Part shown: positions 7,457 through 58,037 of the stretch, piece after piece
Position numbering within the stretch: the first letter of the stretch is position 1
Layout: each line of letters begins with the position of its first letter
NCBI GenBank assembly: GCA_034180415.1
Contig: JAXFOK010000005.1
Span: 65,093-129,092, forward strand
Reading direction: 5' to 3'
DNA from: Bdellovibrionota bacterium
Lineage (GTDB): Bacteria; Bdellovibrionota_C; UBA2361; CAKMMH01
DNA length: 64,000 bases
Position numbers and translations under genes: made by a program
Notes under the pieces: model-generated
Database searches by the model: none
What the model was told of the DNA's origin: nothing
The model's input: only the letters and a program-made list of their open reading frames with translations

Positions 7457-8011
7457 TTGATATCACTGATGGTTAATTTAAAAAATATAGATAATGTAAT
7501 TATTAGAAAAGCCTCAATTCAAGATGTTCCTGAGGTTTGCAAAATTCAAGTAGATGGCTGGTGTAAGACTTATAAGGGAATTATCTTGGATGATTATTTA
7601 AGTAGTTTAAAAAGTAATATTGAAGAGAAAATTCAAGAAACAATTAAATGGTTTAATGAAGATAAAATTTCTAAAAGATTTGTCGTAGCTTTAGAAGATG
7701 AAATAATAGCTTGTTTTTCTTTAATTTTTCCAAGCAAAACTCCAAACAATATTGAAGCAGAAGTGCAGCTAAGTGATATGTATGTAAAAAATGAATATAC
7801 GGGACTGGGAATAGGAACAAAGATTTTTGAATTCATTAAAGATTTTCTTCTTAGTAAAGACAAAAATACCCTTTGTGCATGGTGCTTTAAAGATAATATA
7901 GATGCTTTTAATTTTTATAAGAAAAAAGGCGGTATCGTAAAAAAGGAAGTTCTAAAAACAATTTCTGATAATGAGTACACTGTGGTTTGTTTTTACTATG
8001 AGTTTTTGTAA
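7457..8011 (+). CDS. GNAT family N-acetyltransferase
   Basis: Motif A-like block TGLGIGTKIFEFIKDF and overall 184-aa GNAT architecture. Confidence 0.5.
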   Translation: MISLMVNLKNIDNVIIRKASIQDVPEVCKIQVDGWCKTYKGIILDDYLSSLKSNIEEKIQETIKWFNEDKISKRFVVALEDEIIACFSLIFPSKTPNNIEAEVQLSDMYVKNEYTGLGIGTKIFEFIKDFLLSKDKNTLCAWCFKDNIDAFNFYKKKGGIVKKEVLKTISDNEYTVVCFYYEFL

Positions 8012-8024
8012 AATGAGCATAATT

Positions 8025-10457
8025 ATGAAAAAATTATTATATACAAAATTTATATTTGTTTTTCTGGTAACTTATTTAGTTATATTTTCTGTAGTTTTTA
8101 AAAATGACTATTTAAGTAATATTGATACCACAGAAATTTTAACTGAATGGCAAGTTAACTTTTCACAAATAAAAATATTGTACTATATGTTTCAGTCTGC
8201 GGTATATAGTATTTGCTTGTTGTCATTTATTGTCTTTTTATACAATTATAGCAGCAAAATTTTTAAATTAAAATTATTGATGGAATCTTTAGGAATAATT
8301 AGTATAACCGTAATTTTATTTGGTTATATATATGGCAATTTTTCTTGGGATATTATAAATCTTCCGTTGTTCTTTTATGGAAGTGATGATGCTTATTTTT
8401 TATCTATCGCAAAAAATATTCTAGATGGCAATAGTTTTTGGTTTATAAAAAATTTAGATGCACCATTTGGTACAAGATTGTATGATTTTCCAAATACGTT
8501 GCCTTTTTTTTGCATTTGCGTTCGTGTTTTAGGATTGTTTACAAGTAATGTAATTTTTATAACTAACTTTTATTATTTCTTAACTTTTTTATTAGCCACA
8601 CTCTCGTTTTATATAGTTTTAAGGTTATTTAATATAAATTACTTTTTTTCTATCTTAGGAAGTATTGTATTTTCATTCTCTCAATATCACTTTTATAGAA
8701 ATATTGTACATTTAAATATTTCATCGTTTTTCTCTACGCCCATTGTTTTATACGTGTGCTATTGCATTGCATTTAACAATGATTTTAATAAGAGAGATAA
8801 TCAATTTACCGAAAAGCTAAGGACAATCACAAATATTATAACAATTAGTTTATTAATTACATTTTCTCATATTTATTATATCTATTTTGGATGCGTAGTA
8901 ATTGGTTTTAGCATGATTTGGGCGTTATTTAAAAAAAGATATGTAGCAATAGTAAAATCAATATCTATTCTTTTTTGTATAATAATGTTTGTATTTTGTG
9001 ATTTATTACCATCAATAATATATGGTATTGTCAATACTAATATGATTTCTCATCTTAGACTTCCTTATGATGCGTACGTATATAGTTTGCAATTAGTACA
9101 TTTATTTATGCCTTATCTCACCGAAGGTAAGCATGTTTTTTCGAATATCACTGATGCATATATTCGTTCAGGTATGAGTCAAAGTGAAGCTATGGTTAAT
9201 TACTTAGGAATTCTATCTTTAATTGGATTTGTAATTCTAATTTTGATTTTACTCGTTCCATCATTTAATAATTATATAAGGAAATATGAAGATGAAGGTA
9301 AAAAAGGAATACTAAGTTTTTTTTCGGCAAGCAATATGCTAATACTGTTATTAGGATTACAAAGTGGCATAGGAGTTATCGTAGCACTGTTAGGTTTTAC
9401 AAAAATTCGCGCATATAATAGGGTATCAATATATATATTAATGTATTCAATATTTGCTTTAATTTATATAATGGATATTCTCTATAAGAAATATAATAAA
9501 AAATTAAAAAATTTATATGCAGCTATTATAACAATTTTACTTATATGTTTTCATATTTATGAAACACATTTAACAAATTTTGTACAAAACCAAAATTATA
9601 ATAAAATTGCAATAAGTAATGTTAAGGATTATGCTTACAAGTTAGAAAATTTATACAAAAATGGAGCAAATATTTTACAACTTCCAATAGTAAGTTATCC
9701 AGAAAATTTAACAAATAATTCTTTAACTAATTGTAATTATCAAGTTTTGCCGTACATTTATACTAGTAATATAAAATACAGTTCTGGCGCACTAAATAAT
9801 ACAAAAGAGTATTTTGCACAAAAAGTATTATTTGATATAGATGATATAGAAAATATTTTATTAAATGCGAAAGAATACGGGTTTGATGGAATTAGCGTAA
9901 ATACCGATATGTATAATAATAATTCAATTATTGATAAATTTAATAATATCTTAGGTAACCCTAAAATTATCAGCGATTTAAAAAATATATATTTATACGA
10001 TATAAGAAATTATAAATCTAATAAAAACTTTGAATTGGACAATGTTAATTTTATAGATGATGAAAGATATATTGCTGGCGGTTTTAGTATATTAGAAATA
10101 GGTAAGGATTTTAATATAAGATGGGGAACATTAGAAGGTAAAAAAAAGTCTAAAGGTATTAATTCTTATATTTATTTTCTCCCTCCCCCAAACAAGCCAT
10201 ATAAAATCTTTTTTGATGCAAATTCAGAAATTGATAATACCCTAACAGTTTACGTAAACAATAATAAAATAGATACCTTTAATATCCATAGAGGCGAAAA
10301 TATCTTTGAAACGAAATTAATTAATTTCAATAATATACTAAAACCTTGCATTCTAAAATTAGAACATTCTGCTTCATTTTCTCCAAAAGATATTGATAGC
10401 ACAAGTTTAGATGGGCGGGAGTTGACATTAGCTTATAAACAGATTCGGCTAAAATAG
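8025..10457 (+). CDS. large polytopic membrane protein, paralog A (GT-C / YfhO-like candidate), multi-TM N-terminal domain plus about 300-aa C-terminal extracytoplasmic domain
   Basis: Probable start at ATG 8025 (MKKLLYTKF...) rather than the overlapping 7971. Conserved blocks shared with the two downstream paralogs: NFSWDIINLPLFFYGSDDAYFLSIAKN..GNSFWF..NLDAPFG, FTSNVIFITNFYYFLTF, INYFFSILGSIVFSFSQYHFYRN, C-terminal NCNYQVLPYIYTSNIKYSSGALNNTKEYF...YGFDGISVNTDMY. Confidence 0.6.
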   Translation: MKKLLYTKFIFVFLVTYLVIFSVVFKNDYLSNIDTTEILTEWQVNFSQIKILYYMFQSAVYSICLLSFIVFLYNYSSKIFKLKLLMESLGIISITVILFGYIYGNFSWDIINLPLFFYGSDDAYFLSIAKNILDGNSFWFIKNLDAPFGTRLYDFPNTLPFFCICVRVLGLFTSNVIFITNFYYFLTFLLATLSFYIVLRLFNINYFFSILGSIVFSFSQYHFYRNIVHLNISSFFSTPIVLYVCYCIAFNNDFNKRDNQFTEKLRTITNIITISLLITFSHIYYIYFGCVVIGFSMIWALFKKRYVAIVKSISILFCIIMFVFCDLLPSIIYGIVNTNMISHLRLPYDAYVYSLQLVHLFMPYLTEGKHVFSNITDAYIRSGMSQSEAMVNYLGILSLIGFVILILILLVPSFNNYIRKYEDEGKKGILSFFSASNMLILLLGLQSGIGVIVALLGFTKIRAYNRVSIYILMYSIFALIYIMDILYKKYNKKLKNLYAAIITILLICFHIYETHLTNFVQNQNYNKIAISNVKDYAYKLENLYKNGANILQLPIVSYPENLTNNSLTNCNYQVLPYIYTSNIKYSSGALNNTKEYFAQKVLFDIDDIENILLNAKEYGFDGISVNTDMYNNNSIIDKFNNILGNPKIISDLKNIYLYDIRNYKSNKNFELDNVNFIDDERYIAGGFSILEIGKDFNIRWGTLEGKKKSKGINSYIYFLPPPNKPYKIFFDANSEIDNTLTVYVNNNKIDTFNIHRGENIFETKLINFNNILKPCILKLEHSASFSPKDIDSTSLDGRELTLAYKQIRLK

Positions 10458-10489
10458 GCGATGCAATCTTTGATGCCTCGCCTGTTTTA
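10458..10489 (+). terminator. hairpin plus U-tract immediately after paralog A stop
   Basis: GGCGATGCA-atctttga-TGCCTCGCC stem-loop followed by TGTTTTA. Confidence 0.4.
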
Positions 10490-10544
10490 GCAGCTAGGCG
10501 ACTGAACTACAGTCAATAAAAGTGAAGTGTTTTATTTATAAATC

Positions 10545-10880
10545 TAGTATGCAACAACCCCCCGTAGGGGGTTAATGAAGCGAAGCGGAGCCAGGATGGG
10601 GGGAGCTCGCATAAAAAATGCGACAGCATTTTTTAATGTGCGATTCAACCCATTATAGCAAATGCCCCCCCACACCACGACCCCTTTAGGGATCGACTAA
10701 CAAAATTAAATCGCAATCAATTTAGTAAACATCCCAAATAGAATATCCATTTATATTAGTATAGACAAAACCCCTGTAAAGGGGTTATTAAAGCGAAACG
10801 AGCGTTAGCGAAGTGAAGCGGCGCTAGGGCGTAGTGGCCTAAAGCACAAGCGCTAGCTTGTGCACTCACCACTACGTTAG
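10545..10880. repeat. GC-rich island of REP-like palindromic repeats (CCCC-n-TA-n-GGGG hairpins, each followed by an AGCGAAGCG-type motif) plus a nested compound stem-loop
   Basis: aaCCCCCCGTAGGGGGtt (10556-10573), aaCCCCTGTAAAGGGGtt (10769-10787) and gaCCCCTTTAGGGatc (10679-10694). Each of the first two is followed by ttaatgAAGCGAAGCGgagc / ttattaAAGCGAAACGAGCG. Nested hairpin GTAGTGG-cctaaa-GCACAAGC-gcta-GCTTGTGC-actca-CCACTAC (10831-10875). Composition is visibly GC-richer than the flanks. Confidence 0.5.
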
Positions 10881-10974
10881 AGCTACATATTGTGCATGCT
10901 ACTTGGTTGTCATACAATTATATTATATACTAATTTAAAACTAATTTTAATTAATTCAAGGAATATATGGATTT

Positions 10975-13752
10975 ATGAAGGGTAATATCAAATTTTTGGG
11001 AATTTTTTTTGTCGTTTATGTTTTTATTTTAAGTTTGATATTCAACAATAACTCATTATCTTACCTTAATACTACTAAAATTATAAAAACTTTAAATGTA
11101 ACTAATTTTAATAAATATAAGGTTAATAATAACAATAAAAACTTTGATTTAGAAATTCCCCTTAACCCCTATAATAACGGAACCTCTTATACTGTTTCTC
11201 TTAAATTAAATAACACTTTAAATAAACTATTCAAAACTCATATAAGCTTATATGATGTAAATACAAATAAATTAGCCTATAAGAAACTTTTTAATATAAA
11301 AAAAGGAAGAAGCGTAATTCTTGCTAAAATTTCATACGAAACAAAAGATACAAATTATAAACTAAAAATTGAATCTTCAAATGAAAATATTATAAAAAAT
11401 ATAAAAATTTCTCAAAATAACGTTACACCAAAAATTGTAAATGCTTCCTGCTATGTTTTTCAAGCTTTAATATATAGCATAATTTTATTTGCTTTTATTT
11501 TATTTACCTATTTTCATAGAAAACAAATATTTAATTTAAAAAATATAAGAGATTTTTTTCTAGTAAGCTTAATTACTCTAATACTACTAGGATACATCTA
11601 TAATAACTTTAACTGGGATTTTGTTAATGTACCTATTTATTTTCTAGGCTTAAATGATGCCCACTGCTTAGCTGTACTAAAAAACGCTATGCAAGGAAAT
11701 AGCTATTGGCATATTCCAAACTTAGGAGCACCTTTTGGAACAAATGTTTATTATTATCCAATCCTAATGGGGTTTTATTACTATTTTGGAAGGCTTTTGG
11801 GAATTTTTACGAATAATGTCATTTTTGTAAATAATTTATATTTAATATTAACTTTTATACTTTCTTCTTTTGGGGTTTTTATAATTGCAAGAATTTTTAA
11901 AATTAATTATTTTCTTGCCATTCTCGGAGGCTTGCTTTTTTCAATTTCTCAGAATCATTTAATAAGAAACGGTCTACACGTCCAAATTTCATCATATTTT
12001 GTAAACATAATCGTTTTTTATTACTGTTTTAAAATTGTTAAAGATGAAAAATTCAATAATAAATTAATCTTACTAAATGATAAATTAAAATTATACATAG
12101 GTTTAATCTTAGGAGCTTTCTTACTTGGGTCAGTAGAAATTTATTATGCTTATTTTGGATTGATATTTTTAACTCTAAGTGTGTTTATATCATTATTTAA
12201 TAAAAGATATACCGCAAGCATTAGAGGATTATTATTTATTTTTTTAATATTTATATGTTTAGCAAATAGCTTACTTCCTGCTATCATAAACGCAATTTTA
12301 AATGGAGCTACTAAATCTGCTGTAAGAAGTCCATCTGAAGCTTTTTATTATGGATTAATGCTAGTTCATTTGTTTAAACCGTATAATGTTACTAGCTCTC
12401 ATATTTTTTCTGCTATTTCTAACTCTTATGATAAAGTAATGCCATTTAAAGGAGAAGTGCTTTATAATTATCTTGGAATATTAGGAGGAATAGGATTTTT
12501 ATTATTACTATTATTTTTACTTGTTGAACCCTTTAAAAATATAATACAAAAATATGAAAAGCAAGAAAATAGAGGAACATTAAGTCTTATTTCGATACTA
12601 AATATTTTTGCACTTTTAGTCGGATTTCAAAGTGGTATAGGGATAATAATATCTTTAATGGGGCTTACGCAATTTAGAGCATATAATCGTATTAGTGTTT
12701 ATATCTTACTGTTTTCAGTATTTACACTAATTTATTTACTCGATATCTTCTTTAAGAGAGCCTTTAAAAATAAAACAAACGTATATGTAGCTATCTTTTC
12801 ATTGTTTTTATTATATATTCATATTGTAGATATTAATCCTTCAAATTTAGTTCAAGATTTTAATACAAATAAAGAAAAAGTTAATAATGTAAAAGAGTAT
12901 GCTAAAAACTTAGATGATTACTATAAAGATGGCGCAAAGATTTTACAATTACCTGTTTTATTATTTGTTGATAATTATGTAAGAGATGATTTTACAAACT
13001 GTAATTATCAAGTTTGGCCATATCTTTTTACAAAAAATATTAGGTATAGTTTTGGCGCATTTAAAAATACAAAAGAGTTTTTTATGCAAAATGCACTATT
13101 TGATGATAATAATATTGAAAATGTTGTGTCAAATGCTAAGAATTATGGTTTTAATGGAATAAGCGTAAATACAGATATATATGATAATAGTGATGTCGTA
13201 GCTAGTTTAAAAAACCTTTTAGGTGAACCTAAAATTGTAAGCAAGCTTGGAAACATATTATTGTTTGATTTAAAGGATTATAAATCAAATAAGGAAGTGC
13301 ATTTTAAAAATATTAATTTAATAGAAAACGATAGTAATATTATTAGTGGATTTAGTGGATTAGAAAGAGGAAAAGATTTTTATATAAGATGGGCGGTTTT
13401 AGATGAAAATTTTAACTTAAAGAAAAATAATGGCATAAATTCTTATATTTATTATATTCCTCCAAAAGGTAAGTCATATAAGATTGTTTTAAATGTTCAC
13501 TCTGAAATTGATAATACATTAAAGGTATACGTAAATAATAATAAAGTAGGGGATTTTAAAATTGAAAAAGGGGATAGTATTTTTGAGACCAAAACAATAT
13601 TAAAAGGGAGCGGGGCTAAAAAATTAGAACCTAGTGTGTTAATGTTAGAACATAGTAAGTCTTTTAGACCAAGCAGTTTTGATAATAAATCAATAGATAA
13701 AAGAATATTAACATTAGCATATAAGGAAATCTTGGTTAAAATTTTAGAGTAA
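10975..13752 (+). CDS. large polytopic membrane protein, paralog B (925 aa), with an extra N-terminal extracytoplasmic module
   Basis: Shares all conserved blocks with paralog A (NFNWDFVNVPIYFLGLNDAHCLAVLKN..GNSYWH..NLGAPFG; NCNYQVWPYLFTKNIRYSFGAFKNTKEFF; YGFNGISVNTDIYD). Also carries an N-terminal about 150-aa region (LDLEIPLNPYNNGTSYTVSLKLNN...) absent from A. SD sequence AAGGA 11 nt upstream. Confidence 0.6.
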   Translation: MKGNIKFLGIFFVVYVFILSLIFNNNSLSYLNTTKIIKTLNVTNFNKYKVNNNNKNFDLEIPLNPYNNGTSYTVSLKLNNTLNKLFKTHISLYDVNTNKLAYKKLFNIKKGRSVILAKISYETKDTNYKLKIESSNENIIKNIKISQNNVTPKIVNASCYVFQALIYSIILFAFILFTYFHRKQIFNLKNIRDFFLVSLITLILLGYIYNNFNWDFVNVPIYFLGLNDAHCLAVLKNAMQGNSYWHIPNLGAPFGTNVYYYPILMGFYYYFGRLLGIFTNNVIFVNNLYLILTFILSSFGVFIIARIFKINYFLAILGGLLFSISQNHLIRNGLHVQISSYFVNIIVFYYCFKIVKDEKFNNKLILLNDKLKLYIGLILGAFLLGSVEIYYAYFGLIFLTLSVFISLFNKRYTASIRGLLFIFLIFICLANSLLPAIINAILNGATKSAVRSPSEAFYYGLMLVHLFKPYNVTSSHIFSAISNSYDKVMPFKGEVLYNYLGILGGIGFLLLLLFLLVEPFKNIIQKYEKQENRGTLSLISILNIFALLVGFQSGIGIIISLMGLTQFRAYNRISVYILLFSVFTLIYLLDIFFKRAFKNKTNVYVAIFSLFLLYIHIVDINPSNLVQDFNTNKEKVNNVKEYAKNLDDYYKDGAKILQLPVLLFVDNYVRDDFTNCNYQVWPYLFTKNIRYSFGAFKNTKEFFMQNALFDDNNIENVVSNAKNYGFNGISVNTDIYDNSDVVASLKNLLGEPKIVSKLGNILLFDLKDYKSNKEVHFKNINLIENDSNIISGFSGLERGKDFYIRWAVLDENFNLKKNNGINSYIYYIPPKGKSYKIVLNVHSEIDNTLKVYVNNNKVGDFKIEKGDSIFETKTILKGSGAKKLEPSVLMLEHSKSFRPSSFDNKSIDKRILTLAYKEILVKILE

Positions 13753-13866
13753 CTTTACAAATGTTTTAGATTTTCAATTTTTAATAAATTACTTTATAAT
13801 ATTAATTATTGATAACTATTCAAAAATATTTAATTTTTTCTATATTATATTTTTTAGATTTTATTT

Positions 13867-16659: not shown

Positions 16660-16687
16660 AGTTCTTGTATAATTGAGGATGATGTAT

Positions 16688-17813
16688 ATGGAACGAAATA
16701 TACAATTTGCCATCTTACAAACTATTGCAATTATATTTGTTGTAGTAGGGCATAGTGGTGGAATTTCGATTGGCTTTGAATGGTTTTCTATAAGTAGTTT
16801 TAATATTCCACTCTTTATTTTTATATCAGGATATTTTATAAAGAAGAGCAAGAAAATAAACTGTTAATAACTTTTATAAAGAAGATTAATAAATTTTTGA
16901 TACCAGGTCTAATAATTAATGCTATGTATGGTATTTTGTTAATCTTTTTAAAAAAATATGCTCACTTGCAGTATGGAAATGAAATTAATTTTACTACTCT
17001 TTTTATTCTTCCATTCCAATATTGTTTTCAGCTTGGTATTAATCACCCAATGTGGTTTATTTTTGCACTGTTCTTAATTCAAATAACATATTTAATACTA
17101 AGAAAATTAATTTTTACAAAAAATGATATTATTAAAAATAGCATAATATTTATTACGACTACTGTATAGGAGTATATTTTGTTCATAAAGCATATGTAAT
17201 GAATGAAGCGAGAATTGATTTTTATGTTACTGTGCAACATATTGCATACAGACTTTTCTTTTATCATCTAGGTTATTTATATCATAAATACATTGAAAAA
17301 TATGATAAATTGAATAATCTTTTGTATTTTATAATCATTTTTGCTTTGCAGGCATTATTAATAGTTATCACAAATGGAAATATTGGGATCTCAATGTGGA
17401 ATGCAAATTATAATAATTTAAAAACATATCCTATCATGGCTTTGATAACGCCACTTACTGGAATATTTTTATGGCTTAGAATTTCAAAAATTTTGGTTCC
17501 GTCATTTAAAGATAGTAAATTAATAAATTTTATAAGTAAAAATACTTGGTCTGTTATGGTTCATCATCAAATGGTATTTATCTTAATTAATTTATTACTA
17601 TTATCTTGTTATCAGGTCTTTCATATCTTTAGTGATTTTAATGTCGAAGAATTTAGAACGCAAATCTGGTATATATATAAATTGTTTGGTTATCATAATT
17701 TTGCTTTGATATATGCGTTTTTGGGGCTTGCGATTCCACTTTGTATTAAATATGTTTTGCAAAGATTATCAACAAGGAATGTTGTAATTAAATATATAGC
17801 TAAGATCTTTTAA
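16688..17813 (+). pseudogene. acyltransferase family 3 (OafA/OatA-like membrane O-acyltransferase) gene broken into three frames
   Basis: N-terminus MERNIQFAILQTIAIIFVVVGHSGG is the classic acyltransferase_3 start. The roughly 360-aa coding potential is split across ORFs 16673-16867, 16897-17169 and 17199-17813 in three different frames, which requires two frameshifts. Confidence 0.55.
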
Positions 17814-20354: not shown

Positions 20355-20385
20355 CTAGGAACCCTAGCGCTGTTCCTAGTTTTAT
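20355..20385. terminator. hairpin terminator between convergent FmdB-like and recO-like genes
   Basis: CTAGGAAC-cctagcgct-GTTCCTAG followed by TTTTAT. Confidence 0.4.
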
Positions 20386-23921: not shown

Positions 23922-25100
23922 ATGAGTGCACTTTTTGTTTATAATAAGAAAAATAGGAAAAAGATTTTGGAAAAAAGAGATTATTACGAGGTATTAGGTG
24001 TTTCAAAAAATGCAAGTAAAGCTGATATTAAGAAAGCGTATAGAGTTCTAGCATTAAAGTATCACCCAGATAAAAACAAAGGAGATAAAGAATCAGAGGA
24101 TAAGTTTAAAGAGGCGACGGAAGCATATCAAGTGCTAAGTGATGATGATGCTCGTCAAAAATATGACCAGTTTGGACACGCAGCGTTTGACCAAAATGGT
24201 GGTATGGGTGGAGGCTTTGGAGGATTTGGCGATTTCTCTGGCTTTGAGGATATTTTTGGTGATATTTTTAGTTCGTTCTTTGGCGGTTCAATGCAAGGAG
24301 GGGGGCGTTCAAGAGGACAAGTTGGTGCAGACCTATCTTATGATTTAACTGTTGAATTTGAAGAATCTGTATTTGGTACAGAAAAGGAAATAAAATTAAA
24401 AAGGCGTGTAAAATGTGATGATTGTGATGGTACAGGAGCTCAAAAAGGAACGACAATAGATAAATGTCCACACTGTAAAGGAACAGGCCAAATTAGAATG
24501 CAACAAGGATTTTTTAGCATTAGTAGAACATGCCCAGATTGTCAAGGAAGTGGTCAATTTATTAAAAATAAGTGTCAAACATGTCGAGGAACAGGAAGAA
24601 AATTATCAGAGGCTTCTCTTAAAGTTAAAGTTCCTGCTGGTATTGCTGATGGTCAAAGACTTAAATTAAGAGGTGAAGGAGAATCAGGAATTAATGGTGG
24701 TGAGTCAGGTGACCTTTATGTAAATATCAGAGTTAAGGAACACAAAGTATTTAAACGAGAAGGATATGAGCTTTTTTATGAACTTCCTGTAAATTACACC
24801 ACTCTTGTTCTTGGTGGAAAAGTTGAAATGTTAACTCTTGAAGGAAAAGAGGAATTGGATATTCCGGCAGGTACTCCAGCAGAAAAAGTTTTTAAATTAC
24901 GAAATCGAGGCGTTCAAATTTTAGGCACATCAAGAAGGGGAGACCTTCATATAAAAGTTGTCGTACATGTTCCTACATCAATTTCTGATGATGAAAGAAA
25001 GGCCCTTGAACTTTTAAAACAAGCTGAAAAAAAAGCCCCTAAAGTTACTGAAAAGCAAGGAGAGGGGTTGTTTGATAAGTTTAAGAAAATGTTTGTCTAA
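23922..25100 (+). CDS. dnaJ: co-chaperone DnaJ (Hsp40); the true start is probably TTG at 23967 ([12 protein letters not shown]) with AGGAAAAAG as the SD sequence
   Basis: J-domain ([32 protein letters not shown]), a G/F-rich region, four CxxCxGxG zinc-finger repeats and a C-terminal substrate-binding domain. Confidence 0.93.
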
Positions 25101-25235
25101 TAAAAATGGACGATGCATCGAAAAATCCCGCGTTATCTTACAAAACGCTCCTTTCGCTGTAGAAGGACTACACCTTCAAGTCGCGTTTTATAAGATGCCT
25201 TGTCTTTTTCGCGCCTCGTCCATTTTTATAAAATT
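25100..25235. repeat. about 135-bp element bounded by a 27-bp imperfect inverted repeat (ATAAAAATGGACGAnGCnnCGAAAAA)
   Basis: Left arm taATAAAAATGGACGATGCATCGAAAAAtc (25101-25130). Reverse complement of 25205-25235 is ATAAAAATGGACGAGGCGCGAAAAAg. A third partial copy, GCGATGCATCC, lies at 25236-25250. GC-rich relative to the surrounding native DNA. Confidence 0.4.
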
Positions 25236-25408
25236 AGCGATGCATCCAAATATACTTCGTTATTTGAGAGAGATGACTTTCCTCGCTGCATTACCAGTAC
25301 AGCTCCGGAGATGTCCTCTCAAATGCCTAATTAACGCCTCATCAATCATCATTTAAGGTTGATACGTTTTTTCTTTTAGTTATTATCATCGCAAGGGAAG
25401 AAGCGAAA

Positions 25409-26129
25409 TATGACATTTTTTAGTATGAAAATGCGTGCGAGTCGTACAGATGGCGAAACGACTTTTCATGTATCTGGTGCCGAAAAGATACTTTCTGAAC
25501 CAGAGCTTGTCGTGAATGCAAGGGCATTGATTGAACGGGCACTTCATCATGCAAAGGGAGATGCTGATTATATTTAGTTGAAAATAGAAAAAGCTACACC
25601 GGAAAGTATAGAATATATTGATGCACTACCTGTTCATACTATTGAAGTGGATGATGTAGCATAAGGGCACGAGGCGATTTTGTCACTCTTAATGAAGCTT
25701 GGATTGAAAAATGGTGCTGACATTATGAAAAAATTTCATGAAACTTATGCAATGCGTGGTGCAATGTTATTAGATGTTGACTCTTTGGATCGTTTAGAGC
25801 CAGACCACGCTCGTGGAATACGTGCCACTTATATGGATTCAGAGCACTCTCTATTACGTCCTGTTGATGATGGTAAAAATCATTTTCAATAAGCCATTGT
25901 CCTTGCTAGCAAGGTGTCAAATACACCACACATTATAGCTGAAATCTGTATTTTCGATGATCCTGACTACGTGACAGGTTATGTCGCTTCAAAGCAGACA
26001 GGTTATGTGCGTATAACGAAGCTTAAGGAAATAGGTAATCCAGACGATGGGCGTATTTTCCTTTATCGCGGTCAAAGAGAAGAGGTAAAAATACTATCAA
26101 ATATCTTGAGAAGTAAATTGTCTTAGTAA
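25409..26129 (+). pseudogene. bioW: 6-carboxyhexanoate-CoA ligase (pimeloyl-CoA synthetase) BioW, full length in one frame but interrupted by three in-frame stop codons
   Basis: Single-frame translation MTFFSMKMRASRTDGETTFHVSGAEKIL...KGDADYI*LKIEK...VDDVA*GHEAIL...GKNHFQ*AIVLASKVSNTPHIIAEICIFDDPDYVTGYVASKQTGYVRITKLKEIGNPDDGRIFLY... aligns end to end with Bacillus-type BioW (YSVRMRAS...HISGGERL; AVVAELCWSDDPDYITGYVAGKKMGYQRITAMKEYG..GCRVFF). Internal stops: TAG ending at 25576, TAA at 25661 and TAA at 25893. The region is GC-richer than the genome background. Confidence 0.7.
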
Positions 26130-26132
26130 AAA

Positions 26133-26586
26133 ACGCACCAGATATACAAATTTCAGAAACTGCATACAGATCCGTGGCAGGTTCTTGCTAACAATTTAGA
26201 GCAACTAAAAAATGCAGGACTTTACCGAAGTATTACGACTATCGACTCGCCTCAAAGTGTTCATGTAACTATAGGTGGCAAGAATTTCTTAATGCTTGCT
26301 TCTAATTCCTACCTTGGATTGACGGATGAACCTCGTGTCTGCCATGCTGCATCTGATGCGACGTTACGATTTCGGTGCAGGGGCTGGTGGGTCACGGTTC
26401 ACTACAGAGAGTTTGCAACTTTATGACGAGCTTGAAAAGGCTCTCTCAGATTTTAAAGGAACTGAAGTAACACTACTTTTTAACACGGGTTATATGGCAA
26501 ATGTTGGTATATTGTCAGCCCTTAAATTAAATCGTAAATACCCTGTAATTTCTCGAATCAAATGCACATTTGTGCAAAAATTTTGA
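26133..26586 (+). pseudogene. bioF: 8-amino-7-oxononanoate synthase BioF, N-terminal about 150 aa only, with one frameshift and a premature stop
   Basis: Continues in the bioW frame: ...WQVLANNLEQLKNAGLYRSITTIDSPQSVHVTIGGKNFLMLASNSYLGLTDEPRV. After a frameshift near 26338 it reads HLMRRYDFGAGAGGSRFTTESLQLYDELEKALSDFKGTEVTLLFNTGYMANVGILSAL, which matches the BioF blocks NYLGL...FGTGSSGSRLTTGN...LEKKIA.FK.TEAALLFSSGYLANVGVLSSL. The frame ends at 26586 and native AT-rich sequence resumes. Confidence 0.65.
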
Positions 26587-26684
26587 GTATCATCACACTA
26601 ACGGGTTTACTAAAATTTTGGATTAATCAGTGTTTCCTTAGAGCTTTACAATGCTCTTGATACCTAATTAGTTTTTGATATTTG

Positions 26685-56189: not shown

Positions 56190-58037
56190 TTAGTTGCTAT
56201 ATTTTTTAAATTGTTCTTTAAATTCTTGATATTGTTCTTGTATGAATTTATATAAATCAGTATATTTTGGAACTTTTTTCCCCTCGTATTTGCAAGAAAT
56301 ATTTTGAAAACATCTAACATAGTTTTCTTTATCAGTATTTTTGCATTCATTAATTATTTCTTTTATCGTTTCAAATTCTTTTTCACTTGGAATACCTTGT
56401 CTATTAAACATTCCACTTATAGAACTAAATAACTTAAATATTTCTTTGTTATCTTTAATATGAAGTTCATTTTCTGAATACTCTATAAATTTATTTAAAA
56501 AATCTTTAGCTTTATTTAAATCTTTAGCACCTTTTTTTGCTAACATACTAGTAAATGAGCTAAAGATATTTAAATAATTATCACTGTCTATGCTTTGACA
56601 TTCTTTAATTATTCCTTTAATTTCTTCAAATTCATCACTACTTGGAATACCTTGATCAGCAAACATTCCACTTATAGAACTAAATAACTTAAATATTTCT
56701 TTGTTATCTTTAATATGAAGTTTATTTTCTGAATACTCTATAAATTTATTTAAAAAATCTTTAGCTTTATTTAAATCTTTAGCACCTTTTCCACCTAACA
56801 TGCTAGTAAATGATCTAAAAATATTTAAGTAATTATCACTATCTATGCTTTGACATTCTTTAATTATTCCTTTAATTTCTTCAAATTCATCACTACTTGG
56901 AATACCTTGAGCAGCAAACATTCCACTTATAGAGCTAAATAACTTAAATGTTTCTTTGTTGTCTTTAATATGAAGTTCATTTTCTGAATACTCTATAAAT
57001 TTATTTAAAAAATCTTTAGCTTTATTTAAATCTTTAGCACCTTTTCCACTTAACATGCTAGTAAATGAGCTAAAAATATTTAAGTAATTATCACTATCTA
57101 ATTCTTTACAAGCTAGGATTATTTCTTTTATAGTTTTAAATTCACTTTGAGTAGGGATACCTTCTCCATGATACATTCCACTTATTGATTTTAATATTTC
57201 AACTGATAACTCTTTATTCCCTAATTCTTTTTCTGAAAAATTAGATAACTTTTGTAAAAATTCATTAAATTTTGTCATATCTGGTATTTCGCAAGAGGCA
57301 CTATACATCGATGATAAATTCTCTCTATATTTAGAACTTGCATATACTGATAAATCTTCAAAATCTGTCATTAATAAATTTTGAAAAAATCTTTTCATTT
57401 TATGATACTGAGTCATATTTGAAATAGCAGTAATAACTCGTATATCATGATTTTTTTCATTATCTATAAGTTCTTTAATTCTTAATGTAAGTTCAATTTC
57501 TAGAACTCTTAAAAATTTTTTATTATTTTCATTAATTTCAAATTCATTTTCTATTAATCCATCTTTTGTATATATTGGTTTAATATCATAGACTTTATAC
57601 ATTTCACAAATTTGTGCTTTTAAATTTTGATATCCTATTTTTATTTCACCTATTGAATTTTCCATATCCTCAAAAAAGTTATCAACAAATTTTTTTGCAC
57701 ATAGAAATAATTTTTCAAGAGACTCAATTTTGTCTTCTTTAGCTTCTTTATGCTTAACTTTTGTATTACCTACATGATAATTTTTATAAAAATATAGAAT
57801 TCGGTCAGTAGGGAAGCTTTTAATTTCTCCAAATGTTGATATTTTTTCATCTTGTCTTAATCTTTCACATCTTTTTTTAATATCTTCTATTTGTTCTTCC
57901 GTTAGCCTTCTCGTTTCTTTATCTACCTCTAAACTAGATGCTACATATTTTAAATATAATTTAGGTAATATCCCCGTGCACTTTGCATCATGCTGATAAA
58001 GTTCATTACTATTACTTATTAAAATTTGCTCTGCCAT
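56190..58037 (-). CDS. hypothetical protein built from tandem about 85-aa repeats
   Basis: The 615-aa ORF has a central region with 3 nearly identical repeat units plus two diverged units (LNIFSSFTSMLSGKGAKDLNKAKDFLNKFIEYSENELHIKDNKE.FKLFSSISGMFA.QGIPSSDEFEEIKGIIKECQSIDSDNY). Confidence 0.5.
   Translation of the reverse strand: MAEQILISNSNELYQHDAKCTGILPKLYLKYVASSLEVDKETRRLTEEQIEDIKKRCERLRQDEKISTFGEIKSFPTDRILYFYKNYHVGNTKVKHKEAKEDKIESLEKLFLCAKKFVDNFFEDMENSIGEIKIGYQNLKAQICEMYKVYDIKPIYTKDGLIENEFEINENNKKFLRVLEIELTLRIKELIDNEKNHDIRVITAISNMTQYHKMKRFFQNLLMTDFEDLSVYASSKYRENLSSMYSASCEIPDMTKFNEFLQKLSNFSEKELGNKELSVEILKSISGMYHGEGIPTQSEFKTIKEIILACKELDSDNYLNIFSSFTSMLSGKGAKDLNKAKDFLNKFIEYSENELHIKDNKETFKLFSSISGMFAAQGIPSSDEFEEIKGIIKECQSIDSDNYLNIFRSFTSMLGGKGAKDLNKAKDFLNKFIEYSENKLHIKDNKEIFKLFSSISGMFADQGIPSSDEFEEIKGIIKECQSIDSDNYLNIFSSFTSMLAKKGAKDLNKAKDFLNKFIEYSENELHIKDNKEIFKLFSSISGMFNRQGIPSEKEFETIKEIINECKNTDKENYVRCFQNISCKYEGKKVPKYTDLYKFIQEQYQEFKEQFKKYSN
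56386..57150. repeat. three near-identical direct tandem repeats of about 255 bp (in-frame coding repeats), flanked by diverged copies
   Basis: The landmark ttccacttatagaRctaaataacttaaat recurs at 56411, 56667 and 56921 (periods 256 and 254 bp), with near-identical intervening sequence. Confidence 0.8.

Follow-up and report, generated by a model that had tools for sequence, protein, structure and literature searches.

Tandem copies of a structured element in the A–B spacer

Genes A and B of a Bdellovibrionota bacterium (contig JAXFOK010000005.1, positions 65,093 to 129,092; this 64-kb stretch is the window hereafter, and positions are counted within it) are separated by a 517-nt spacer, 10458–10974, that forms a GC-rich island in an AT-rich genome. 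The island is made up of the gene A terminator and, after it, a tandem pair of diverged copies (W1 and W2) of one ~150-nt structured element (Table 1). Its GC content is 0.404, compared to 0.10–0.33 in 33 of the 34 other gaps of at least 60 nt (the exception, at 0.388, holds a bioW pseudogene), and the mean for coding sequence is 29.5%. In 200-nt windows over 10400–10900 GC reaches 0.41–0.46, against ~0.20–0.28 in the adjoining genes. Of the four perfect hairpins in the window that have 7 or more bp and four or more GC pairs, three fall in this spacer, and the fold of the island beat all 100 shuffles on both strands (z = −6.3 and −7.1). Native terminators in the window are long AT-rich hairpins, and hence the C4–6/G4–6 hairpins of the island are atypical for the host. 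No frame of the island is open or conserved. The island was recovered without substitutions in five independent Logan contigs (five runs) of the same strain, and is therefore not an assembly artefact. It is followed by an AT-rich, native-type leader of gene B (10925–10974), in which AAGGAA (10958–10963) precedes the ATG at 10975.

An earlier reading of this DNA from its letters (the sequence-only reading) had pointed out the GC-rich island, the paralogy of the flanking membrane-protein genes and a set of palindromes, tails, a compound hairpin, a GCAT-aaaaa-ATGC hairpin with a U-tract and a terminator-like hairpin after gene A, all of which we found again at the stated positions; Table 1 gives the parts, an A/T hairpin among them. 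What it had listed as separate items, the palindromes, tails and compound hairpin, in fact assemble into two copies of one unit. Each copy comprises a 7-bp CCCC/GGGG hairpin (H1), a purine-rich linker, an irregular arm of ~80–95 nt and a second small GC hairpin, with conserved sequence at the arm base and in its internal loop (GCCAGGAUGGG ... CCCAUUAUAG..AUGCCCC..ACACC). The tails AAGCGAAGCG and AAGCGAAACG come after the first two palindromes, and the direct repeats span 32 nt (75% identical) and 25 nt (80% identical). Over a longer span W1 and W2 share a ~60-nt direct repeat (ATTTATA..TAGTAT..CAA.AACCCC-loop-GGGGTTA.T.AAGCGAA.CG.GAGC), 213 nt apart, with a Smith-Waterman score of 37 compared to 15.7 ± 2.3 in shuffles. 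A long hairpin comes after each repeat: a G6...C7 arm with an A/T apex in the first unit, and the compound hairpin in the second. The gene A hairpin has 18-nt arms with 89% complementarity (dG −26 kcal/mol, z = −5.96) and a U-run that is partly within the stem; its A-run and T-run flanks suggest that it is bidirectional.

Table 1. Features of the A–B spacer and its flanking genes (window positions).
Feature	Position	Strand	Description
Gene A	7971–10457	+	828 aa, DUF6311-like multi-pass membrane protein, 12 hydrophobic segments, weak PF19830 match
Gene A terminator-like hairpin	10448–10491	+	GCTAAAATAGGCGATGCA / TGCCTCGCCTGTTTTAGC; overlaps the TAG stop of gene A
W1	10553–10699		Better-preserved copy of the ~150-nt structured element
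Palindrome AACCCCC-cgta-GGGGGTT	10556–10573		W1 hairpin H1; UUGUUG follows on the minus strand
W1 purine-rich linker	10574–10589	+	AATGAAGCGAAGCGGA; the "tail" of the sequence-only reading
W1 long irregular arm	10587–10669		Closed by GCCAGGATGGG (10590–10600) and CCCATTATAG (10649–10658), then ATGCCCCCCCACACC
A/T hairpin	10612–10635		TAAAAAATGC-gaca-GCATTTTTTA; apex of the W1 arm, loop GACA
Imperfect palindrome CGACCCC-ttta-GGGATCG	10678–10695		W1 3' hairpin H8, one C·A mismatch
W2	10765–10924		Diverged second copy, architecture as W1
Palindrome AACCCCT-gtaa-AGGGGTT	10769–10786		W2 hairpin H1
Duplication in the W2 linker	10787–10824		Internal to the linker
W2 arm (the compound hairpin)	~10820–10897		Apex GCACAAGC-gcta-GCTTGTGC at 10844–10863
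Compound hairpin	10830–10876		CGTAGTGG...GCACAAGC-gcta-GCTTGTGC...CCACTACG; in the W2 arm
W2 3' hairpin	~10903–10920		AT-rich
Gene B	10975–13752	+	925 aa, DUF6311-like membrane protein, downstream of the island

A homologue in a clostridial contig

Contigs with DUF6311 homologues were screened for GC-rich hairpins, and three such hairpins were found clustered at the start of L007, a 7.9-kb Logan contig obtained via DUF6311 homology. Its SerS shares 70–76% identity with the SerS proteins of Lachnospiraceae and other Clostridia, and by this measure L007 is of clostridial affinity and no relative of the window organism. Its positions 137–286 match the first unit block by block (in order, the AACCCCGTAGGGGTT hairpin, the block GCCAGGATGGG, one long hairpin, the blocks CCCATTATAG..ATGCCCC..ACACC and finally the CCCC-loop-GGGG hairpin), and island and contig align with a Smith-Waterman score of 40, compared to 22.3 ± 2.7 in shuffles. 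The long hairpin is unrelated in sequence to that of the W1 arm, and a small hairpin stands in L007 in place of the purine-rich W1 linker. Strong AT-rich terminator hairpins bound the L007 element on either side and set it apart as a unit of its own. The doubt raised in the sequence-only reading itself, that the motifs might be unique to this locus and not conserved in relatives, is thus dispelled by the L007 homologue.

We built a covariance model from L007:137–286 alone with its own minimum free energy structure and searched it over the 64 kb on both strands. The top two matches were W1 (48.2 bits, E = 5e-10) and W2 (17.1 bits, E = 0.014), and the reciprocal model from W1 and W2, searched over 170 kb, recovered L007 with a score of 86.7 bits (E = 8e-18). 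When W1 and W2 were laid on the L007-derived structure, 91.9% of cells were standard pairs, compared to 33–49% with the partners slid, and 14 pairs had changed on both sides between W1 and W2, each of them still pairing (0–2 in slid controls; none of 500 shuffles reached 14); with model-fitted alignments and three sequences, these pairing figures are supportive, not definitive. The apical loops of the three copies are GACA, GAUA and GCUA, the closing (U/A)GC...GC(A/U) is conserved and the stems beneath covary. Nucleotides are conserved in the internal loop and at helix bases, and helix interiors are variable. Such a distribution is the usual signature of functional RNA, and as the conserved positions are those of loops and helix bases and the helices themselves covary, a function at the RNA level appears most likely.

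No catalogued relative of the element was found. At gathering thresholds none of the 4227 models of Rfam 15 matched anywhere in the window, and a permissive scan (E ≤ 10) of the island gave at best CRISPR-DR46, which scored 20.8 bits (E = 1.3) where its threshold is 50; nor did the L007 element match, miRNA models hitting its flanking AT-rich hairpins alone. Covariance searches detected no copy besides W1 and W2 in the window, in a further ~10 kb of flanking sequence of other strains, in a locus of a Lachnospiraceae metagenome-assembled genome (MAG) or in five other DUF6311 contigs, and no element was present upstream of the DUF6311 homologues in L004, L005/L006, L096, L097, L105 and L232, the last with an upstream gap of 687 nt. 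Searches with blastn of the island and the L007 element against plasmid and phage collections yielded nothing relevant, as did the literature, queried by sequence string and for DUF6311. Viral scans for the conserved arm motifs returned either no matches or random ones without covariance-model support. Within the window, the motif CCCCNNNNGGGG is confined to the island, as is the tail motif (0.02 occurrences of CCCCNNNNGGGG expected by chance), and the exact hairpin-and-tail pattern had no match in 185,579 species-representative genomes. Patterns of this type at four loci of a metagenome collection and 1 + 3 of a viral collection look like chance or pattern-driven matches. As candidate relatives we rejected L093, where the hairpin sits in a promoter spacer, and L092 and L095, which lack the conserved arm motifs and score 12–21 bits. 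L092 (Ga0138286_1039994) and L095 (Ga0102688_1013441) are AT-rich metagenome contigs dense in hairpins of the types ACCCC-loop-GGGGT and TAAGATTA...TAATCTTA, which return every few tens of bases and are not homologous to the long arm of the island.

The element would be a new structured-RNA family without a catalogued relative and present across phyla, and since the homologue sits in a clostridial contig the family has probably spread horizontally. Orphan structured noncoding RNA motifs have been found as long GC-rich intergenic regions (GC-IGRs) of AT-rich bacterial genomes. Our element resembles them in being a GC-rich, hairpin-dense island in a ~29% GC genome, with conserved loops, covarying helices, no coding potential and no assigned function; it differs in lying outside the 4227 Rfam 15 families and in having only three known copies, two of them in tandem in an accessory segment. 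The accessory location is seen by comparison with the relative L004, which is syntenic on both sides at 77–93% nucleotide identity and lacks 8005–13763 (gene A, island and gene B), retaining the orthologue of a third paralogous gene, C, only; other strains differ again in the genes they have here. By these comparisons the island belongs to an accessory segment of a hypervariable surface-polysaccharide locus.

Candidate roles of the element

We tentatively favour the reading that W1 and W2 are tandem genes for an undescribed small structured RNA, or possibly, in this host, relics of such genes, transcribed from the minus strand, against the direction of genes A and B. In this reading the CCCC/GGGG hairpin with its U-rich tail would be a Rho-independent terminator, a pyrimidine-rich linker (CUUCGCUUC.., CCCAUCCUGGC) would be exposed between arm and terminator, and the pair would have arrived with or within the strain-specific segment of the variable polysaccharide locus. 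H1 read on the minus strand passes a terminator scan in W2 and in L007, with a weaker tail (UUGUUG) in W1, and the U-tail flank is conserved in the three copies (UUUUUGU, GUUGUU and UUUUGU). Promoter-like sites on the minus strand are situated just upstream of W2 (TTAAAA-17-TATAAT, 10950–10922) and of W1 (TTTACA-16-TAATAT, 10780–10753). The homology, a common secondary structure with compensatory changes, the accessory location and the lack of an Rfam match are established; action as an RNA, the strand used, the promoters and any target are what we infer here. PrrF1/PrrF2 and OmrA/OmrB are tandemly duplicated small RNA genes, each with its own Rho-independent terminator. Similar to these pairs, W1 and W2 are diverged head-to-tail units and have, on the minus strand, a GC hairpin and U-rich tail after an unstructured pyrimidine-rich stretch; unlike them, they share no sequence similarity with those genes, have an unusually long (~90-nt) conserved arm and have putative promoters. 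The sequence-only reading had proposed three roles, namely a structured small RNA, REP/BIME-type elements (repetitive extragenic palindromic sequences and bacterial interspersed mosaic elements) or the scar of a GC-rich mobile element. Of these the first fits best, and it now gains from a structure conserved with compensatory changes across W1, W2 and L007; its transcript is putative.

Several observations weigh against this reading. The promoter matches are weak for DNA so rich in AT (6 found, compared to 3.1 ± 1.7 expected), and a scan of the L007 element gave no promoter-like site. W1 scores 48.2 bits with the plus model and 46.5 bits with its mirror, minus-strand model, values so close that they do not settle the strand, while G·U pairs slightly favour the plus strand (~8–12 compared to 4, in an alignment fitted to the plus model) and full-length W2 is recovered by the plus-strand model only. 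The known copies number only three, in two organisms, and the covariation accordingly comes from few sequences and from model-fitted alignments. With ~6 non-standard pairs in W1 and the conserved loop motifs gone from W2, one or both of the window copies may be decaying. The bioW relic in the same window means that GC-richness alone is no proof of function here, and identity of the island across the five runs is uninformative on selection.

The G·U pairs and the full-length W2 match speak for a tandem, riboswitch-like cis-regulatory leader on the plus strand, which would be transcribed with gene B and control this membrane glycosyltransferase-like DUF6311 gene by sensing a ligand or protein and, as a single copy in L007, a serS–DUF6311 operon via the terminator that follows. 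The element is upstream of and co-oriented with a DUF6311 gene in both organisms, 50 nt before gene B in one and ahead of serS and the DUF6311 gene (31 nt apart) in L007, where a strong terminator hairpin comes ~20 nt after it. Moreover, a hit in a 7.9-kb contig retrieved by DUF6311 would be improbable were the element low in copy number and unlinked to DUF6311, and tandem sensor domains, known in several riboswitch classes, offer a precedent. We nevertheless consider such a leader unlikely. The element is absent upstream of the DUF6311 homologues in L004 and the other contigs listed with it above, and inspection gave no convincing antiterminator or alternative pairing that would sequester the ribosome-binding site. 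There is no plus-strand terminator between W2 and B, and that in L007 is a generic bidirectional AT-rich hairpin such as follows ordinary genes of the window. The conserved A-tract before H1 would have no role in a leader, whereas on the other strand it is the U-tail of a terminator. The likeness to tandem riboswitch and leader arrays ahead of surface-polysaccharide genes lies in the tandem arrangement and in a place before, and an orientation shared with, the gene of a polysaccharide-related membrane protein in both organisms, and the difference in that no expression platform was identified and that the element is absent before most homologous genes examined.

Near-equal scores of the plus and minus models on W1, together with a match of the L007 model to its own opposite strand at 25 bits, amount to a pseudo-symmetry that would suit an element acting as DNA: it might be a mobile element of the non-autonomous type or a site of recombination or replication (similar to miniature inverted-repeat transposable elements (MITEs), palindrome-associated transposable elements (PATEs) or REPs), or a set of hairpins like those of single-strand or transfer origins, recognised as DNA and spreading horizontally. 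The two terminal hairpins are alike (ACCCC-loop-GGGGT), and the long arm has an imperfect inverted repeat at its base (GCCAGGATGGG / CCCATTATAGC). The copies are in tandem, and the element is present in two phyla and within a segment specific to the strain. We judge this quite unlikely, as the copies are not near-identical and their helix interiors are unrelated yet paired, which speaks for long-term structural selection and against recent transposition; copies that differ in helix sequence and keep pairing do not follow the copy-and-paste pattern of REPs or MITEs. No target-site duplication is visible around W1 or W2, no further copy occurs in the 64 kb and flanks, and plasmid, phage and viral collections gave nothing. 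A Pfam scan of 34 window open reading frames (ORFs), 11 of which matched nothing, revealed no transposase, integrase, reverse transcriptase or Y1/HUH family, and no RAYT (Y1 transposase) gene was among these ORFs. The island shares with the REP/BIME elements of enterobacteria and pseudomonads short GC-rich palindromes just after a gene, some in tandem, and GTAG/CTAC tetranucleotides; unlike them, its unit is a 150-nt composite, not a palindrome of 20–40 nt, and is not dispersed in the 64 kb. The REP/BIME proposal of the sequence-only reading is thus not borne out by the copy searches in the window, in the ~10 kb of flank and in the 185,579 genomes (exact pattern). Rickettsia palindromic elements, enterobacterial repetitive intergenic consensus (ERIC) sequences and MITE-type repeats are similar in size (~100–150 nt), in their long hairpin, in GC above that of the host and in horizontal spread. 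The island element differs from these in having neither a terminal-repeat and target-duplication signature nor a multicopy family in available sequence, and in a hairpin interior that is not conserved in sequence between copies; its inverted repeats are imperfect and at the arm base, and no near-identical copies were found elsewhere.

Absence of 8005–13763 from L004, despite the flanking synteny, and the still other gene sets at this position in other strains would also fit a relic without function in this host, that is, foreign DNA recombined into the hypervariable locus and decaying under AT-biased mutation, its donor plausibly a gut Firmicutes in which the element may work. The ~6 broken pairs of W1, the missing loop motifs of W2 and the now AT-rich last hairpin of W2 are consistent with decay, and the bioW/bioF pseudogenes show that GC-rich relics persist here. 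Most W2 helices are still perfect, however, and the 14 double changes all keep pairing, although the selection that preserved it may date from the donor genome. The GC of genes A and B (~0.24) resembles that of the host, and so the island did not simply come in as part of one uniform foreign block; its identity over five runs tells nothing either way. Altogether we consider a functionless relic improbable. As to the proposal that the island is the scar of a GC-rich mobile element, the segment missing in a relative, the sharing across phyla and the bioW/bioF relic mean that it may still hold. Very unlikely, in our view, is a further possibility, that of a new mobile structured-RNA class common to Bdellovibrionota and Clostridia and tied to DUF6311/GT-C-like surface-polysaccharide genes, which would serve as a regulator of cell-surface glycan variation (a riboswitch or a leader that binds a protein) or as the RNA part of a mobile system that depends on RNA and has so far escaped recognition.

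Other known kinds of sequence were considered and set aside. A CRISPR array does not fit two repeat copies 213 nt apart, with no repeat of the 71-nt sub-period and an Rfam direct-repeat match far below threshold. Integron attC sites (RYYYAAC ... GTTRRRY) were dismissed by inspection, the GTTA.. heptamers not fitting GTTRRRY and the B–C spacer being without a site; the scanned window ORFs included no integrase. The template/variable pair of a diversity-generating retroelement was rejected because there is no reverse transcriptase and the differences are not adenine-specific. Phase variation of the G6/C7 tracts and a sigma54 promoter in the conserved block were discarded since neither is conserved in L007. 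There is a 14-nt inverted repeat at 10750–10763 / 10926–10939, and contig L099 ends at 10770; an invertible promoter was rejected because four other contigs read through and the break is off the repeat edge. Hammerhead and K-turn motifs were ruled out by inspection, 6S, SRP and tmRNA by the lack of Rfam matches, with the accessory location counting against them, and a coding remnant by the lack of an open or conserved frame.

Should the element be a functional RNA, it would add a family missed by Rfam 15, shared across phyla and found in poorly known uncultured gut bacteria, and would provide a handle on the regulation or exchange of hypervariable surface-polysaccharide loci. Should it be a decaying passenger, it would, with the bioW relic, document the uptake of GC-richer foreign DNA by an AT-rich lineage. 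Orphan motifs are common; this one stands out for its cross-phylum occurrence, its surface-glycan locus and its testability with the covariance models built here, which are a ready query for database-wide searches.

Surrounding genes and other features of the window

Genes A, B and C are paralogues encoding proteins of 828–930 aa with 11–12 hydrophobic segments each and weak DUF6311 matches (amino-acid identity 47% for A/B, 44% for A/C and 50% for B/C), and come after two GT1 glycosyltransferase genes and a GNAT gene. The best match of the window's SecY in 185,579 species representatives is a Bdellovibrionota MAG at 60% identity, and record names refer to gut and faecal metagenomes. An acyltransferase-3 gene downstream of gene C is intact in L004 (10345–11472, 375 aa), compared to a 59-aa fragment and a 204-aa ORF in the window (16660–17813); with the GNAT gene it is the other way round, the window copy being whole and that of L004 fragmented. 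As read from these two sequences, this shows reciprocal gene decay in the variable glycan locus. The DUF6311-like genes of the Bdellovibrionota MAG (window A, B and C) and of the AT-rich Clostridia-like contigs (L007 1837–4632, and L232) are 36–39% identical, and a collection of 5.8 billion proteins contained very few homologues (14 and 10 matches). The family is rare and seems to be tied to the gut, and its genes may pass from one phylum to another.

The second GC-rich patch, 25101–26684, follows dnaK–dnaJ, is non-coding and has a GC content of 0.39. It contains a bioW pseudogene (PF03744, 231 bits, three in-frame stops), then a frameshifted 5' fragment of a bioF-like aminotransferase gene, and was probably acquired horizontally as its GC is well above that of the host. 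Directly 3' of dnaJ is a near-perfect long hairpin of 135 nt (25098–25232; dG −45 kcal/mol, z = −7.8), the 5' end of which is partly repeated in tandem at 25228–25265 (Smith-Waterman 32 compared to 15.5 ± 2.2); no Rfam family matches this bioW-leader hairpin region. The outer stem of the long hairpin has TAAAAT.RGCGATGCA in common with the gene A terminator, but the likeness of that terminator to the hairpins ahead of the bioW pseudogene is not significant overall and was rejected (Smith-Waterman scores of 22–26, compared to 20 ± 2.4, maximum 29, in shuffles).

The fourth perfect GC-containing hairpin of the window, at 20355–20379 (CTAGGAAC-cctagcgct-GTTCCTAG, then TTTTAT), is ~145 nt 3' of a zinc-ribbon gene and is probably a terminator. 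Lastly, 56320–57196 consists of ~3.5 tandem copies of a 255-nt repeat with 76–88% identity, in a 615-aa minus-strand ORF (56190–58037) for a repeat-containing protein.

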